Source: an uncultured Lachnobacterium sp.
GTDB lineage: Bacteria > Bacillota > Clostridia > Lachnospirales > Lachnospiraceae
Direction of reading: 5' to 3'
NCBI GenBank assembly: GCA_900550545.1
Contig: URSS01000004.1
Location: forward strand, 52,644 to 116,643
Length of the DNA stretch: 64,000 nucleotides
Shown: in pieces, positions 1,581 to 53,600 of the stretch
Layout: each line of letters opens with the position of its first letter
Numbering within the stretch: position 1 is the first letter of the stretch
Position numbers and translations under genes: made by a program
The notes under the pieces: model-generated
The model's input: only the letters and a program-made list of their open reading frames with translations
The model's database searches: none
Told to the model about the DNA's origin: nothing

Positions 1581-1774
1581 ACTTTTTTACCTCTCGTTTC
1601 TTTTGTATTGTGTGCATTTTTCAAAACTTCTGGAAAATCGGGAGATTCCCTTGATTGGTTCACAGACAGGAAACTTTGTATTTCTGAATCATTGTTCTGT
1701 CTGTATAAATTATCCCATGTATGCAATGCACACATGGGATAGAAGATACGATTTATACTTTGATAAAGATATCT

Positions 1775-1950
1775 TCTCTGTCCTGTTGCCTGAGAGATTC
1801 ATACGCATCGCGTATGTTGCACCTTCGGCCCCTGATCATATCCAGGTGTCTCCAGAGAGTCGATCCATTTACAGTTGCACCGGTCAGCCGGCACCTGAGA
1901 GTGTTACTCCTTCGGTAGACTTGCGTCGTTTTCCTGCAAACTTCATCTCG
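1775..1950 (-). promoter_or_regulatory. Glycine riboswitch (second aptamer clear, upstream aptamer degenerate) in the 5' leader of the AGCS symporter
   Basis: Minus-strand read: CTCTGGAGACACCTGG...GGGGCCGAAGGTGCAA...TCTCTCAGGCAACAGGACAGAG matches the glycine aptamer core (CUCUGGAGA / GCCGAAGG.GCAA / CUCAGGCAA.AGGAC). Upstream block ACCGAAGGAGTAA...CTCTCAGGTGCC resembles a second or ghost aptamer. Hairpin ATCCCATGTGTGCATTGCATACATGGGAT at 1714-1745 may be the expression platform. Confidence 0.7.
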
Positions 1951-6731: not shown

Positions 6732-7002
6732 AGTTACACTCCTTATTTTTCAATTATATGATTAAAGGGTCAAAAGGTATCATCGATGCATGCTTGCATG
6801 CAATTCGATGTATACCTTAGTGACCCGCACTACACCGAGAAAGTAGCAATTTACTGCTGAAACGCAGAAAATTAGCGGATTTCGAGGTGGAGTCAGATTA
6901 CGGGAATGCGTAGCATGTAGTAATCTGATTAATCATAAATGAGGGGCAAAATACCTTTTGACCCTCATATCATTATATAACATTGTTAAGTATTTGCGTG
7001 TG

Positions 7003-20849: not shown

Positions 20850-21075
20850 ATAAAAAAACCAGCTCTCATCTGAGCTGGTCTAATCTACATTGTTGTATAT
20901 TATAGATTCGATAGCTCTCCAACTTTGTAAGTTGACAGTCATACGGTTCTTCACCCTATGCCCAGAAATAAAATTACAGTTCTTTTATCTCTTCGGCGCT
21001 CGCCCCTTTCTCCTATGTTCCACTGTGTCTGTCACATCCCACAGAATACTCTTAGCTTGCGCGACCTCTATCTGA
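20850..21075 (-). promoter_or_regulatory. Lysine riboswitch (L-box) with intrinsic terminator, in the leader of dapA-dapB
   Basis: Minus-strand read: AGAGGTCGCGCAAG...TGGGATGTGACAG...GAGAAAGGGGCGAGCGCCGAAGAG...GACTGTCAACTT...TGGAGAGCTATCG, then terminator hairpin GACCAGCTCAGATGAGAGCTGGTC + TTTTTTT (20852-20880), then RBS GGAAGGGAGAG and ATG. Confidence 0.65.
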
Positions 21076-21112
21076 GTTATTTGCTTCTTTTTTGATAATA
21101 GCACCATGTGTA

Positions 21113-43573: not shown

Positions 43574-44168
43574 TGTCTTTTTCGTACTTACGCATTTCTA
43601 CCTGAATCGGTGTCGGATCTGATGTAATTTTCTTTTTGCCAATATGATTAAAGAACACCAGAATTCCAACTGCCAGACCAAGTCCATAACAGATTTCAAT
43701 TTCTGACACAGTCGGTTTTTTCTGCCCGATCACCTGTCCATAGAACCGATCAAACACTTCCCCGATGGAAATGTCATTGTTAAACGCCATAATTGTAAAT
43801 GCAGATCCTAAAAAAATGGTAATGCACAACAATGTCACTTTGAAATACTCTCTCCATTTTGGTGCGATTGGAGATGCGATATATTCCACAACAAAATCCT
43901 GTTCTCCATAACTTACAACCTCCACATTTGGATAATCCTGCTGAATCAGATCAATCACATTCAATATGGAAAATACCTCGATGCGCTTCTTTTTCTTTCC
44001 GACATCCTTTTTAAAGGTATATAGTGTTTTATTCTTTACACCGGCGGCAATGGCTGGATCACTGCATTGTACCGACATCACATCCATGATTTTTATCTGC
44101 GGTTCGTAGCAGACACTGTTCATATCTGCTTTCACATATACCGTTTCATGCTTTTCCTTCATATTCAC
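43515..44168 (-). CDS. spoVAA: Stage V sporulation protein AA
   Basis: 217 aa; size, position upstream of spoVAB and TM C-terminal half fit SpoVAA; overlaps spoVAB by 59 nt. Confidence 0.5.
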   Translation of the reverse strand: MNMKEKHETVYVKADMNSVCYEPQIKIMDVMSVQCSDPAIAAGVKNKTLYTFKKDVGKKKKRIEVFSILNVIDLIQQDYPNVEVVSYGEQDFVVEYIASPIAPKWREYFKVTLLCITIFLGSAFTIMAFNNDISIGEVFDRFYGQVIGQKKPTVSEIEICYGLGLAVGILVFFNHIGKKKITSDPTPIQVEMRKYEKDIDTTFIENAGRKGHEHDVN

Positions 44169-44454
44169 AATTGCTCTTTACAAGCGTTCCTTCCTTCGGC
44201 GTTGCATTTTTGCTGCAGGACAGCATATACCAGCCTGCCAGTGCGATGATAACGACAAGGGCGATGCCCAATATGATACGGTAGCAGCGTACACCATTAC
44301 CTGTGTGTTTCTTTTTGCTTTGTTGTTCCATGCGCGCCTCCTTTTCTTCTGTGCTAGTATGTACCTTTTTTTACGCATTATTCCAAATTTTCAAAGTATG
44401 CCAAAAGATGATTGACAGGTTCTCCTTTTGGACATACATTAAGAGTAGATGTGA

Positions 44455-44935
44455 GGTATCAAAGTTCGTGTTGCCGCTGCTCTGCGTGGGTGCTCTTCTT
44501 TTCAGGTTAGTTATCCAGAATTTGAATTTTCAAAAAATTCCCCACTGACTCCTTTTATGATTTCCGTCCGTTCAAGTTTCGACAAGGCACAGTCACTGTC
44601 CGTCTCTCACAGATGACGTCTGAAGTATTTTGTGACGGTCTTAGTGATGGGGTAAAGAATACCGTGCCCACGGGTCGCATTTGCGCCCTCGTTCTACCAT
44701 AGGCATATGAAGTTTTACGGTGGGCGACACAATGGAGAGTGGGCACAATAAAATTTCTGAACCCCACCACTTAGACCGGCTAAAAATGCTGAACGCATCT
44801 GTGAGAGACGGACAGTGACTGTGCCTTGTCGAAACGCGAGCCGGACAGAAAATTTGAGTCAGTGGGAAACTTCATGAAAATATCAAAATTCTGTCTAAAA
44901 CCACCTGAAAAAAAGAGCACCCACGCAGAGCAAGG
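44455..44935. repeat. Approximately 480-bp palindromic element: 40-bp perfect inverted repeats (44578-44617 / 44798-44837) nested in ~120-bp imperfect arms around a ~180-bp core
   Basis: The exact reverse-complement match was verified by eye. Outer blocks ctgctctgcgtgggtgctctt / aagagcacccacgcagagca and cccactgactc / gagtcagtggg. Core has nested pairs gtgcccac (44664) / gtgggcac (44739) and ggtggg (44719) / cccacc (44763). Confidence 0.9.
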
Positions 44936-44994
44936 AAACAACAACTTTGAAGGGCCTCCGACAACCAAGTATTATGTGAAAGGAACTGCATTCT

Positions 44995-45774
44995 ATGGTG
45001 CAAACGAAAGAAATTATGACACTTGCCGTAGAAATCGGTGACATCATGCTGCGAAGCGGCGCCGAACTCTACCGCGTGGAAGACTCTCTCATACGAATAC
45101 TCGAAGCATACGGCATCGAAGACTTTGACGTGTATGTTCTCTCGAATGGTATCTTTGCCAGCGCCAACGAAAGCCGCGACGATGCCTGCAGTATGATCCG
45201 GCATGTGCCGCTCTCTGGTGTAAATCTCAGTAAAGTGGCAGCTTTAAATCAGCTGACAAGAGACATCTGCGATCACACCTGTTCCATCGCTGAAGCAAAT
45301 GTACGGCTGGCAGAGTGCAAAAAGCTCCCGCCTTATCCGAGGCCTCTGCTTATCGGTGGATGCGCGATTGCCTGCGGATGCCTCTGTTATCTCTTTGGCG
45401 GTACCCATGTGCTCGACATGCTTTTTGCCACGATCATCGGGGGACTCGAGGAAGCGTTTCTCCTTGCGTGCCAGAAGCACCGCATTACGCGTTTTCTCAC
45501 GACCATCTATGCAAGTATTTTTGTGGCAGTACTGACCATTCTTGTTTTTATGACCGGACTTCCGATTCATTATGACAAGATCATTATCGGTGATATCATG
45601 CCACTTGTTCCGGGAATTGTTTTTACGACTTCGATCCGCGATTTTTATAACAGTGATTATCTGTCCGGAACGATTCATCTCATTGATGCACTGCTCACGG
45701 CACTGTGTATTGCAGTAGGTGTTGGTCTTCCGATTATTCTGTTCCGCTACATGGGAGGAGGTTTTCCTTTATGA
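44995..45774 (+). CDS. Threonine/serine exporter family protein (ThrE, DUF1212 half)
   Basis: 259 aa, membrane; N-terminal soluble region then TM segments typical of the ThrE family. Confidence 0.65.
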   Translation: MVQTKEIMTLAVEIGDIMLRSGAELYRVEDSLIRILEAYGIEDFDVYVLSNGIFASANESRDDACSMIRHVPLSGVNLSKVAALNQLTRDICDHTCSIAEANVRLAECKKLPPYPRPLLIGGCAIACGCLCYLFGGTHVLDMLFATIIGGLEEAFLLACQKHRITRFLTTIYASIFVAVLTILVFMTGLPIHYDKIIIGDIMPLVPGIVFTTSIRDFYNSDYLSGTIHLIDALLTALCIAVGVGLPIILFRYMGGGFPL

Positions 45775-46211
45775 CATATGTGATTCAATTTGTGTTCGCA
45801 ATGATTGCAACGATTGCTTTTGCGCTTTTGTTCTGCGCCCCTAAAAAAGAACTCGTTTTCTGTGGATTATCCGGCGCACTCGGCTGGATCGTATACTATA
45901 TTCTCATTCAGCTAAATGGCAATGTGGTACTCGCCTCTTTGGTTGCCACTTTTATTCTGGCCGTTTTTTCAAGGACCATGGCTGTCGTGCGGCGCAATCC
46001 TGCCACGGTATATCTATTATGTGGAATTTTCCCTTTGGTACCTGGCGCCGGCATTTATTATACTGCGTACTATCTGATCACAAATGAAAGCTCGCTTTTT
46101 TCCGCAAAGGGACTTGAAACATTTGAAATTGCTTTGTCGATTGTATTTGGAATTATTTTTGGATTTGCAATTCCGGAAGCGCTTTTTCACCGCTCCCGGA
46201 ATCAGAAATAG
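45771..46211 (+). CDS. Threonine/serine exporter family protein (DUF3815 half)
   Basis: Start MTYVIQF overlaps the upstream stop (ATGA); 146-aa 4-TM protein. Confidence 0.6.
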   Translation: MTYVIQFVFAMIATIAFALLFCAPKKELVFCGLSGALGWIVYYILIQLNGNVVLASLVATFILAVFSRTMAVVRRNPATVYLLCGIFPLVPGAGIYYTAYYLITNESSLFSAKGLETFEIALSIVFGIIFGFAIPEALFHRSRNQK

Positions 46212-46216
46212 AAATC

Positions 46217-47508
46217 TTATTGGATTGCATCAAGTGCATTGGAAATATCTGCAATCAGATCTTCCTTGTCCTCAAGACCAAGGCTGATTCGAATCAGTTC
46301 TGCAGGTACACCTGCTTCCTTAAGCTGTTCGTCATTCAACTGTCTGTGTGTTGATGTGGCCGGGTTGAGGCAGCAGGTTCTTGCATCTGCTACATGTGTC
46401 TCGATTGCGCCCAATTTCAGTGTCTTCATAAAAGTAGAAGCCGCTTCACGTCCGCCCTTTAATCCAAAGGAAACGACACCACATCCGCCATTCGGCAGAT
46501 ATTTCTGTGCTCTCTTATAATATTTATTGGATGGCAGTCCGGAATAATTGACATAGGCAACTTTTGGATGACTTTCCAAAAATTCAGCCACAGCCTGTCC
46601 ATTTTCTACATGTTTTGGCATACGCACATGCAAAGATTCCAAACCAAGATTGAGAATAAAGGCATTGTGTGGTGACTGCATAGAACCAAAATCACGCATC
46701 AGCTGCGAGGTACACTTCGTAATAAAAGCTCCTTCTTTTCCAAATTTTTCTGCATAGGTAATTCCATGATAGCTCTCATCCGGTGTACAAAGTCCCGGAT
46801 ACTTGTCTGCATGTGCCATCCAGTCAAATTTACCGCTATCTACGATTGCTCCACCTAACGCAGCACCATGTCCATCCATGTACTTTGTCGTAGAATGTGT
46901 AACAATATCTGCGCCCCATTCGAATGGACGGCAGTTTACCGGTGTCGGGAATGTGTTATCCACGATCAGCGGTACTCCATGCTCATGTGCCACTTTTGCA
47001 AAAAGTTCAATATCCAGAACGGTCAGTGCCGGGTTTGCAATCGTCTCACCAAACATCAGCTTGGTATTCGGCCGAAATGCCGCATTGAGCTCTTCTTCCG
47101 TTGCATCCGGTGATACGAACGTTGCTGTAATTCCCATTTTTGCCATCGTTACAGCGATCAGGTTAAAAGTGCCTCCATAAATAGAGGAAGATGCTACGAT
47201 ATGATCTCCACATTCACAAATGTTAAACATGGCAAAGAAATTTGCAGCCTGTCCGGATGAGGTAAGCATAGCTGCGGTACCACCTTCCATCTCTGCAATC
47301 TTTGCTGCCACAAGGTCGTTTGTAGGATTCTGCAGACGGCTGTAAAAATATCCTTCTGCCTCTAAATCAAACAATTTTCCCATATCTTCGCTTGTGCTGT
47401 ATTTAAAAGTTGTAGACTGTACAATCGGAATCTGTCTCGGTTCCCCATTTCCCGGTGTATACCCTGCCTGTACACATTTCGTCCCCATTCTATATTCGCT
47501 CATTTTAT
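46217..47508 (-). CDS. metY: O-acetylhomoserine aminocarboxypropyltransferase (sulfhydrylase)
   Basis: Start MSEYRMGTKCVQAGY with RBS GGAGA; PLP-dependent Cys/Met-metabolism fold; 430 aa. Confidence 0.85.
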
Positions 47509-47602
47509 TTTCTCCTTTCGTCTTCGGATTCCACTTTCCATATGAATCCCATAGGATTATAGTAGCATTTCTGTATCTTATTTGCAATAAAAGGATTTTT
47601 CT

Positions 47603-50647: not shown

Positions 50648-53600
50648 TTAGGCGCGGTTTTCAATGCTTTTTTCAATAACTTTTACATTTTTTTCGCCAA
50701 GAAAATTCGTCAAAGTGGTCAAAAGCTCCGAATTTGCGCAAACGGTAAGGTTTCTTCCCAGCCTTTTTACTGCTTTCGGATTTGCTACATAAATGACAAC
50801 CTCATCGTTTCCATCGGAATCGTGAAGTTTTGCCATCAGTTCCTGCTCCTGCGACAGATACTCCTCTTTTGTCGGGAACTGGAGCCAGATTTCTCTTTGT
50901 GTATCGTCAAACGGAATGATGCGCTCGCAGATAATTTTACCATTCTGCTCATCCTCTACCGTGGCATGCCCGACAACAAACACCTTCGCATCTTCATTCA
51001 AAAAGCGGCTGTATCTCTCATAATCTTTTGGAAATATGATAACTTCCACATTCCCGGTCAGATCCTCCACCGTAATGAATGCCATCGCCTTATTATTTCT
51101 GGTAAATTTCACGGTCTTTGCCGTGATGATTCCACCAACGATCACATGTGCATTGTCCTGCACTTTGACAGCACCGGTCTCTTCCTCACGGATGAAATCG
51201 AGTGCATTTGCAGTGACACTTTTTTTCATCTTGTCCATGTACTCTTCGAGCGGATGTCCGCTGAGATAAATGCCGAGCACTTCTTTTTCGAATCCCAGAA
51301 GCATCTCTTTATCAAACTCACCCACATTCGGATACTGCACTTCGTAATCTTTTTTATCTTCCTCCGATACCAGATCAAACAGGCTCATCTGCCCGGACAT
51401 CGTATTTTTCTTCTGATGTACCACCTGATCCACGATTGATGCATAGACCATGGTCATCTGCTTTCTCGTTCCGTCGAGACTGTCACACGCCCCCGCCTTG
51501 ATCAGATTTTCAATGGCACGCTTGTTGACATCCCGCTCCGCGGTACGCTCAATGAAATCCTGCAATGTGCGGTATGGTCCTCCCAGCTCGCGTTCTTCGA
51601 TAATTTTGTCAATGACCGGACGTCCCAAAGCTTTGATCGCATAGAGTCCATAGCGGACATTTTCTCCTTCTGCGGTAAACTCACCACGTCCGACATTGAT
51701 ATCCGGCGGCAATACCTGGATTCCCATATCCTTGCAGTGGAACAGATACTCTGCCGCTTTTGCCGAGTTATCAATGACAGATGTCATAAGCGCTGCCATA
51801 AATTCTACCGGATAATAATATTTTAACCATGCGGTCTGTACCGAAATGACCGCATAAGCTGCCGCATGGGACTTATTGAACGCATACTTGGCGAAGTCTA
51901 CCATGGAATCATATATACTATTTGCAGCCTTTTCATCAATGCCATTTGCCACGCAGCCCTTAATACCACGCGTTTCATCTCCATACACAAAGCTCTGCCG
52001 TTCGGCATCAATGACATACTGCTTTTTCTTACTCATGGCACGACGGATATTATCCGCTTGTCCCATCGTATAACCGGCAAGTTTCTGCACGATCTGCATA
52101 ACCTGCTCCTGATAGACGATACATCCGTAGGTCGGCTCGAGAATCGACTCCAGCTCCGGTGTCACATAGGAAATCGTGTCCCTATTGTTTTTTCCCTTGA
52201 TATAGTTTGGAATAAAATCCATCGGACCCGGCCGGTATAAAGAAATTCCGGCTACAATGTCCTCGAAATTCTGTGGTTTTAATTCCTTCATGAAGTTCTG
52301 CATTCCCGCAGACTCCAGCTGGAATACACCCTGAGTCTTTCCAGAACCGATGAAATCAAGTACTTCTTTGTCATTCAGGTCAATGTGATCGATATCGATA
52401 TCAATTCCTTTGGTCGCCTTTACATTTTTTACCGCATCTTTGAGTACCGTCAGGGTCCGAAGCCCCAGAAAGTCCATCTTCAAAAGGCCCAGTTCCTCTA
52501 ACTGTACCATATTGTACTCTGCCGTCGGGCTGCCATCACTCGCTCTGCCAAGCGGCACATAATCACTTGCAACGCCCGGATAGATCACGACGCCCGCCGC
52601 ATGCACCGAAGTATGGTTCGGCAGTCCTTCCAGACGCTTTGCCATATCAATGAGTTCATGCATCCGCGCATCTCCCTCGTAGATACTGCGGAATTCCGGA
52701 TTTACCTGAAGTGCCCGGTCAATCGTCATATTCAGCTCCATCGGCACCATCTTTGCCAGACGGTCCATCTCTGCGTATGGAAAATCAAGTGCTTTTCCGA
52801 CCGCTTTGATGACACCTCTTGCTGCCATCGTACCGAATGTCACAATCTGCGTCACAGAATCCTGACCATATTTTTCTGCCACATATTCGATCACGCGGGA
52901 ACGCTCCGCATACTCAAAGTCCACATCGATATCGGGCATGGATACACGCTCCGGATTCAGGAAACGCTCAAACAGCAGATTGTAACGTACCGGATCGATA
53001 TTCGTGATTCCTGTACAGTAACATACACGGCTTCCGGCACCGGAACCTCGTCCCGGTCCTACCCAGCAGTCATGCGTCTTCGCCCAGTTGATATAATCCC
53101 ACACAATAAGAATATATTCCACAAATCCCATGGTCTCTATGATACCAAGCTCATATTCCATATCCTTATAGATGGCGTCGCACTGTTCTTTGGTATAAGC
53201 TGCATTGTTCGTATATTTTTCTGCAAAGCCCTTGTCACACAACGCCCGCAAAAACTCACTGGCTGATGCATAGCCTTCCGGCACTTCATATTTTGGAATC
53301 TTATAATTGCCAAACTCTAAAGTAACGTGACAACGGTCTGCAATCTTCTGGGTATTGTCTACTGCCTCCTGTGCATATGGGAAAAGTGCCCGCATCTGTT
53401 CCTCGCTTTTTACAAAGAACTGACCGCCCTCGTAGCGCATACGGTCCTCATCCGTAATTTTCTTTCCGGTCTGGATACAAAGCAGGACATCGTGTGCCTC
53501 CACATCCTCTTCGTATGTGTAATGCACATCGTTTGTACACACAAGACCAATTCCAAGTTCCTGGCTCATCCGAAGCAGCTGCTGATTGACAAGCTTCTGG

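Follow-up and report, generated by a model that had tools for sequence, protein, structure and literature searches.

Invertible DNA segments in the leaders of bacterial genes are known from Clostridioides difficile, in which those of cwpV, flgB and cmr are flipped by RecV, from the fimS switch of E. coli and from the invertible promoters of Bacteroides; the recombinase of such invertons need not adjoin the segment. Correia/NEMIS, RUP, BOX, ERIC/IRU and REP/BIME sequences are another class of intergenic DNA, and bacterial miniature inverted-repeat transposable elements (MITEs) and palindromic repeats of this sort are often co-transcribed with neighbouring genes. Here, we analyzed a palindromic element of ~0.5 kb that lies upstream of the exporter gene thrE in an uncultured Lachnobacterium sp. 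(Lachnospiraceae), in a stretch of 64,000 nucleotides (positions 52,644 to 116,643 of contig URSS01000004.1; called the window for simplicity and numbered from its first nucleotide). An initial annotation made from the sequence of the window alone had left three models open for this element, namely an undescribed long regulatory RNA, an invertible DNA switch and a MITE-like relic. We conclude, with a probability of about 70%, that it belongs to a dispersed family of MITE-like foldback DNA elements whose interior is invertible and which are missing from some strains. The family consists of ~0.5-kb non-coding foldback DNA in Lachnospiraceae of the Roseburia/Agathobacter group and has not been described previously; full-text literature searches returned no published description of the element.

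The element resembles invertons in that it is an intergenic segment of a few hundred bp with inverted repeats around it, occurs in both orientations and, at this locus, separates a promoter-like site from the first gene of an operon. It differs from them in that its cargo is conserved, multi-copy and internally palindromic instead of being a locus-specific promoter fragment, contains no conserved promoter or terminator and is framed by locus-specific outer repeats of 30-57 bp; moreover, no recombinase was identified, copies also occupy the 3' ends of genes and the space between convergent ones, and some strains lack the element altogether. With Correia/NEMIS, RUP, BOX, ERIC/IRU and REP/BIME sequences it shares the properties of being non-coding, dispersed, intergenic, hairpin-forming, variable between strains and a substrate of rearrangements. 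Unlike MITEs, however, it is three to ten times larger (~500 bp versus 35-160 bp), is detected in about 2-4 diverged copies per genome, has an internal conserved part, variable terminal repeats and an interior that inverts, and has no known parent insertion sequence. Long inverted arms around an asymmetric center, two isomers and arms copied alike are also found in eukaryotic foldback elements and in the flip/flop hairpins of parvovirus and poxvirus telomeres, but the element occupies internal sites of bacterial chromosomes and not the ends of replicons, with no terminal-resolution machinery and no evidence of hairpin-primed replication. Its size range, its rod-like to ornate predicted fold and its covarying stems recall the 6S, OLE, GOLLD and ROOL RNAs, from which it is set apart by the lack of a covariance-model match, of strand asymmetry and of conserved transcription signals as well as by being invertible and dispensable. 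The element is hence partly like the leader invertons of C. difficile and partly like MITEs and foldback elements, and it falls short of each class because it has neither an identified recombinase and conserved regulatory cargo nor conserved termini and a known parent.

Structure, occupancy and orientation at the thrE locus

The inner part of the element is a perfect inverted repeat (44576-44615 versus 44796-44835, 40/40) with 180 nt between its arms; a 40-mer inverted match was obtained in 0 of 100 shuffled sequences. The initial annotation had recognized this repeat, albeit with coordinates 2 nt too high, and had correctly described longer imperfect arms, which are present as several complementary blocks nested around it: 44478-44507/44903-44932 (30 nt, 97% complementary, 29/30), 44526-44551/44856-44881 (85%), 44511-44530/44879-44898 (75%) and 44459-44475/44934-44950 (82%). 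The complementary blocks it had listed in the core (gtgcccac/gtgggcac and others) are also there, but they belong to a continuing imperfect hairpin and do not speak for a pseudoknot. The nested palindrome of ~490 bp is predicted to fold into one rod-like hairpin on either strand, with energies of -283 kcal/mol for the plus strand (z -21.3) and -306 kcal/mol for the minus strand (z -22.6), each of which was reached in 0 of 100 shuffles; which strand folds better differs from copy to copy in the family comparison. Within the 64-kb window there is no second copy of the element and no other long inverted repeat.

The extent of the element was set by alleles lacking it. Filled, flipped and empty alleles were retrieved with the 61-aa gene on the other side of the element (44146..44331, minus strand), the first of the divergent spoVA cluster. 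Contigs L150, L153 and L155 contain no element and read ...GATGTGAGGTATCAA directly followed by CCAAGTATTATGTGAAAGG..., i.e. GGTATCAA followed by CCAAG, whereas in L151, L152, L154, L156 and L158 these two sequences are separated by 501-502 bp. The whole element accordingly spans 44463..44964 (502 bp) between ...GGTATCAA and CCAAGTATTATG..., and CAA is found at both junctions (44460-44462 and 44962-44964). Empty alleles are scattered and do not form one clade. In a lineage of ~7% divergence (the L047 type) the junctions are the same but enclose another allele of the element, and in another species a diverged copy (L143) is located upstream of a thrE of 75% identity, with a different left neighbor. 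No copy was found in more distant relatives, and a search for further empty sites next to thrE orthologues from other species was defeated by sequence divergence, which prevented alignment across the junction. Taken together, the alleles favor a long residence of the element at the window locus with occasional precise loss.

An alignment of 23 sequence types delimits, inside the element, an invertible unit of ~395 bp (44508..44902, TAGTTATCCAGAAT ... ATTCTGTCTAAAACC), which the profile hidden Markov model of the family matched over positions 1-393 with a score of 372. The unit is composed of an L arm, an inner repeat, a core, a second inner repeat and an R arm. The L arm (44508..44575) is of the ATCCAGAAT type with an extra GATGATT-like block and is paralogous to, yet consistently distinct from, the R arm (44836..44902), which is of the AGACAGAAT type on the complementary strand. 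The left inner perfect repeat (44576..44615) is made up of GTTTCGACA, a variable 12-nt block (AGGCACAGTCAC), TGTCCGTCT and CTCACAGATG, and the right one (44796..44835) is its reverse complement. The asymmetric core between them (44616..44795, 180 bp) is 67-100% conserved across the family and sets the orientation of the unit. Outside the unit lie the left outer inverted repeat (44478..44507), which is locus-specific and has one mismatch (C44498), and its partner on the right (44903..44932).

Open reading frames within the element were rejected as genes, being mirror-image artefacts of the palindrome that are not conserved between copies, with alignment indels of 1, 4 and 5 nt. Readings of the conserved motifs as hammerhead-, parS-, dif- or LexA-box-like sequences did not fit in any case. 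In the L arm, AATTTTCAAAAAATT (44525-44539) is one mismatch away from the CodY-box consensus; other copies do not conserve this sequence, and the match is probably due to chance.

To determine orientation, each copy found in the family search described below was oriented by its core, flanks were clustered, and the joining of the unit to the same flank pair was recorded. Among the matches listed, both orientations were found between the same flanks at four loci: 3 contigs in one orientation and 4 in the other at the window locus (spoVA side/thrE), 10 versus 7 at locus A of Roseburia faecis (spoVG-pth), 3 versus 28 at R. faecis locus B (cysK-relQ) and 4 versus 1 at locus F7/F12. A second, independent sample of the window locus, obtained with the identical 61-aa protein, comprised 4 alleles in the orientation of the window, 3 flipped and 3 empty ones, whose left flanks differ from the window at 2-10 of 1517 nt (99.3-99.9% identity). 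At locus A the orientation of a copy shows no correlation with the divergence of its flanks, and the flanks of the most similar pairs in opposite states differ at only 2 of 933 to 6 of 2071 nt (0.2-0.3%). In pairwise alignments identity extends to the inner edge of the outer repeat (up to ...TTTTCAGGT at the window locus, where alleles diverge from 44508), is followed by the reverse-complemented unit and is then resumed. The invertible-DNA model of the initial annotation is supported in this respect; the usual crossover, however, is at the outer repeats 44478-44507/44903-44932 and not at the inner repeats it had proposed. The arm type is linked to core orientation in about 95% of the copies, which argues against the inner 40-bp repeat as the usual crossover site, and this candidate was dropped; variants in which the core is inverted with respect to the arms, or in which both arms are of the L type, are rare (L042, L076, L091 and L120). 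The mismatch marker C44498 remains on the left-flank side whichever way the unit points (window and L158 in one state, L050 and L154 in the other), and a (T,C) allele did not occur. Few independent events lie behind this marker, the immobility of which points to an exchange in the inner 9 bp (TTTTCAGGT) or to a mechanism without a classical crossover. In the flipped allele L151 the left outer repeat is of the diverged L047 type and the right one of the window type; L151 is a hybrid of two alleles of the same locus and its outer repeats are consequently no longer complementary.

A dispersed family of related copies

The family was searched with a 24-base pattern from the inner module, of which three 8-mers had to match exactly. 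In reference genomes this pattern was found at 6 places, two of them in R. faecis JCM 17581 (2.71 and 3.00 Mb), two in Lachnospiraceae MGYG-HGUT-00136, one in 'Lachnobacterium' UMGS1467 and one in a further Lachnospiraceae metagenome-assembled genome, and in metagenomes it was present on at least 119 contigs, nearly all from the human gut. At least 128 copies were collected, 99 of them complete, which fall into 23 sequence types at 96% identity; the family alignment and the flank clusters were, like the orientation counts, derived from copies among the matches listed. The 25 flank families correspond to at least 12 distinct sites, which are intergenic. About 2-4 copies were detected per genome, and the copies of one genome are diverged from each other. 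The element is thus dispersed, non-coding and present in only some strains, as the MITE model of the initial annotation would have it, but it is low in copy number and diverged and is not a dead relic.

The first relative had been encountered as the sole hit of a BLAST search against phage records (MT839852.1, 71% identical). Between this copy and that of the window GTTTCGACA, TGTCCGTCT, CAGAAT and segments of the core are conserved, and the intervening blocks differ but remain complementary within each copy. The record, entitled 'Bacteriophage sp.', was rejected as a phage, since it is really a chromosomal fragment of R. faecis (integrase fragment, glgC, glgD, spoVG). The record (L001, 3611-4219) terminates in a homologous palindrome, and its 3' end repeats the reverse complement of its own left flank over 123 nt, a fold-back assembly artefact at this palindrome. 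A BLAST search of the element against a plasmid collection gave no match, and matches of arm motifs in viral contigs were discarded as chance, comprising single arms only. The metagenome contig L115 bears two family members at a distance of 6.5 kb (about 196 and about 6768), of which the second, whose model positions 161-393 and 11-155 lie on opposite strands, is either incomplete or rearranged.

Conservation within the family is internal. Each arm contains the module GTTTCGACA-N12/13-TGTCCGTCT, which is the 40-bp repeat of the initial annotation, and inner repeats are perfectly Watson-Crick paired over 39-43 bp in most sampled types. The variable block of 12-13 nt is the same on both arms in 11 of the 23 types, with at least 10 different sequences among types, and most of the other 12 are hybrids joining the arms of two elements. 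GTCCG (as CGGAC on the other strand) is the most over-represented 5-mer of the unit, and its positions in each arm are fixed, with a spacing of 32-33 nt (44566-70 and 44598-602 on the plus strand, and as CGGAC at 44809-13 and 44842-46); at least four such boxes at conserved positions are present in 19 of 19 types, and we consider them putative protein-binding sites. The outer inverted repeats can not be aligned between most loci and are near-perfect within a copy, with a length of 30 bp in the window and 47-57 bp elsewhere. Terminal inverted repeats common to all copies were not found, as the outermost ends vary by locus or subfamily. In several copies of one subfamily (L012, L036, L100, L120 and L125) TTTTTTGATGC is present on both sides, preceded by a GC-rich hairpin; these ends look like the terminators of neighboring genes, so that the copies may either adjoin terminators or bring terminator-like ends with them.

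Elsewhere the copies have as neighbors pth, relQ, cysK, spoVG, eno, purB, an ACT-domain/homoserine dehydrogenase (hom) operon, a DAHP synthase (aroG-like), ABC transporters and pyrI. They are situated between co-directional, divergent and convergent genes, at 5' or 3' ends, and usually fill the intergenic space. The only protein families that recur near copies are RelQ and a Cys/Met enzyme, which is explained by the synteny shared between the window locus and R. faecis locus B.

Copies also exchange with each other: among the matches listed, many contigs join the flanks of different loci. The R. faecis junctions (F2+,F1-) in L068 and L136 and (F0-,F3+) in L042 are a reciprocal pair and, on the evidence of their sequences, the products expected of a 290-kb inversion between copies A and B. 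Diagnostic positions place this exchange inside the core, where the two copies are most alike, and the junction of L136 is on a contig of 28.9 kb.

Maintenance of the palindrome and competing explanations

We envisage that the arms of the foldback element would be kept complementary by copying one from the other, through gene conversion or replication template switching within the palindrome, and that flipping at the inner edge of the outer repeats may be due to a short-homology replication-based switch or to an unlinked recombinase that reads the conserved boxes. A number of observations weigh against a mobile, invertible family or limit what can be said about it. The Pfam lists, which cover about 1.8-64 kb of the window, contain neither a recombinase nor a transposase, so that the earlier statement that no recombinase is nearby holds for essentially the whole window; no such gene is linked to any copy either, which leaves both mobility and flipping without an identified enzyme. 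The empty allele is known at only one locus, the CAA at its junctions fits a 3-bp target duplication as well as the microhomology of a hairpin-stimulated deletion, and the L047-type allele together with the L143 copy favor deletion over a recent insertion. The outermost ends are not conserved between subfamilies. The sample is biased, in that the search pattern partly imposed the invariance of the boxes by demanding three exact 8-mers; L143, which was found independently of the pattern, has degenerate boxes and an imperfect inner repeat. Orientation was read from the consensus contigs of different samples, low coverage makes it conceivable that some of the hybrids between loci are chimeras, and a regulatory effect on thrE is plausible but putative.

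The possibility that the element is a programmed phase-variation switch, with an unlinked site-specific recombinase that would bind the conserved boxes, flip the unit at many loci and turn flanking genes such as thrE, pth and relQ on or off by means of a promoter or terminator whose effect depends on orientation, in the manner of RecV at cwpV and flgB of C. difficile, overlaps with the foldback-element explanation and differs from it in considering flipping a selected function. This would be in line with both orientations among near-identical strains at four loci, with phased and conserved GTCCG boxes, with the location of the window copy between a promoter-like site and thrE, and with the marker C44498, which places the exchange in a stretch of 9 bp that is too short for an ordinary RecA crossover. 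An outward promoter-like site at the R end (TTCACA-17-TAAAAT), good in about half of the types or subfamilies, would also suit a switch, but neither the window copy (TTCATG-19-TAAAAC) nor R. faecis has more than a poor version of it. A conserved core promoter (GACACA-17-TAAAAT) was considered and rejected, because its -35 is weak and only about half of the types have it. No terminator-like site was found in the element on either strand, and no promoter or terminator within the unit is conserved across types. In addition, a recombinase is absent from the window and does not recur near copies, copies between convergent genes would provide a promoter switch without an obvious target, the nested palindromy of the cargo is left unexplained, and the orientation evidence stems from consensus contigs and not from a mixture within one population. 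We therefore regard a selected switch as unlikely, although it deserves to be kept in mind.

A bolder version appears to us more speculative still and rather improbable. According to it, the copies would be portable flip-flop modules served by one unlinked recombinase or transposase that reads the GTCCG boxes and GTTTCGACA-N12/13-TGTCCGTCT, with the outer repeats and spacers acting as identity codes that restrict exchange to an element's own arms, and they would jointly place housekeeping and stringent-response genes (relQ, pth, thrE, eno/purB) of dominant butyrate-producing gut commensals under a multi-locus phase-variation regulon.

If selection acted on an RNA, G-U pairs should be tolerated on one strand, and the pattern of changes in the stems therefore bears on whether the palindrome is maintained as RNA or as DNA. 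The consensus fold has 148 pairs, and the covariation that the initial annotation had proposed to look for exists, with double changes in 81 of them, but it lacks G-U intermediates: the variable stems contain no one-sided (G-U) changes at all, and in 15 types G-U-type mismatches amount to 116 on one strand versus 146 on the other (with 3115 Watson-Crick pairs and 442 transversion mismatches). The double changes, being practically free of G-U intermediates and showing no strand bias, are what a DNA palindrome with arms copied from one another would be expected to display, and they argue for copying at the DNA level rather than selection on RNA. Strand bias of fold energy or of G-U mismatches as a sign of RNA was dismissed as a criterion, being inconsistent between copies. 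A search of Rfam, with the whole window at the gathering score and 43800-45600 at E-values up to 10, gave no relevant match at the site, the best hits (E-values 1.2-8) being unrelated families far below threshold; this agrees with the initial annotation, which had found no resemblance to 6S, RNase P, tmRNA, T-box or any riboswitch.

A long structured RNA, be it a cis-regulatory leader or a stand-alone non-coding RNA with a rod of ~250 bp whose covariation results from selection on the RNA, would nevertheless explain the very stable fold on either strand, the compensatory changes in the consensus pairs, the conserved and asymmetric internal loops, the small number of conserved U-G pairs together with a U-U pair within the CTTAG/CTTAG block, and the thrE-leader position, which recurs in the diverged copy of another species. 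It is at odds with the symmetric covariation and the perfect Watson-Crick pairing of the inner repeats, with invertibility, by which the same gene is faced by either strand, with dispensability in some strains and with the unrelated genomic contexts, in which position and strand are not constant upstream of one gene class; nor does the unit hold a conserved promoter or terminator, and no Rfam family was matched even at the relaxed E-value. We consider such an RNA very unlikely. The thrE-specific long regulatory RNA of the initial annotation is not sustained for the same reasons, namely the lack of an Rfam match and of strand bias, the unrelated neighbors and the presentation of either strand to thrE. 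Any transcript that crosses the element will still form a huge hairpin.

That the orientations and hybrids are assembly artefacts of the inverted repeat in a static palindrome can be practically dismissed: it is true that the 40-bp inner repeat interrupts short-k assemblies, that the element is the point at which MT839852.1 folds back and that several hybrid contigs have a coverage of 1-2x, but flips are bounded by the 30-bp outer repeat (20+9 bp perfect) and not by the longer perfect inner repeat, either state is found in contigs built at k=119-141, which rules out assembler ambiguity over a repeat of 30 bp, and in contigs of 50-260 kb, breakpoints are identical in dozens of independent samples, and the reciprocal A/B junctions include the 28.9-kb contig. 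Among the Logan contigs (k=31), L015-L022 end inside the element, two of them starting at 44806, with the final 30 nt of the right inner perfect repeat, and six at 44749.

The thrE leader, its surroundings and biological meaning

Downstream of the element, Pfam matches confirm the ThrE-family genes of the initial annotation, thrE (PF06738, 44995-45774) and thrE_2 (PF12821, 45771-46211), both on the plus strand. The promoter postulated upstream was recovered in a pattern scan (TTGACA-17-TACATT, 44412..44440, plus strand, 10 of 12 matches), as a pattern match only; it reads into the element and thrE. A divergent promoter-like site (TTGGCA-16-(TG)AATAAT, 44377..44404, minus strand) is directed towards the 61-aa gene and spoVAA-spoVAB. 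The junction is 22 nt past the -10 of the site at 44412-44440, which in the empty allele is 52 nt upstream of the ATG of thrE. This junction places the element inside the thrE leader, as had been annotated. A transcript from 44412-44440 would have to cross the 0.5-kb hairpin, the sequence of which depends on orientation, and filled, flipped and empty alleles may on this account be expected to differ in thrE expression.

In a relative (L147, 2310-4472; ThrE 68% identical) the genes for PFK, SpoU, an 87-aa protein, RelQ, ThrE, ThrE_2, the 61-aa protein and SpoVAA are colinear. In the corresponding part of the window (44995-47587) the ThrE pair is inverted compared with both sides, with the element at one breakpoint and a Cys_Met_Meta_PP gene at the other. 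A comparison of PFK homologues narrowed the source of the window down to Agathobacter/Roseburia-like Lachnospiraceae, but no further. Elsewhere in the window, Rfam matches at the gathering score are a Clostridiales-1 RNA (6759-6935, plus strand, 130 bits), a lysine riboswitch (20904-21078, minus strand, 110 bits) and a glycine riboswitch (1768-1865, minus strand, 59 bits).

Few butyrate producers of the human gut are as abundant as Roseburia and its relatives, and to our knowledge almost nothing is known about mobile or phase-variable DNA in this group. The family members fragment short-read assemblies, and one public 'phage' record is a fold-back artefact. Beside core genes, the family gives rise to three kinds of strain variation: presence or absence of the element, a flipped interior and chromosomal inversion between copies. 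If the expression of neighbors such as thrE, relQ or pth changes with orientation or presence, these commensals would generate heterogeneity by a new route, and if there is a dedicated enzyme, its sites, in which conserved boxes are combined with free-form spacers, would merit interest as a recombination system. Should neither be true, the family would still be a clean natural case of concerted evolution keeping a long palindrome perfect.

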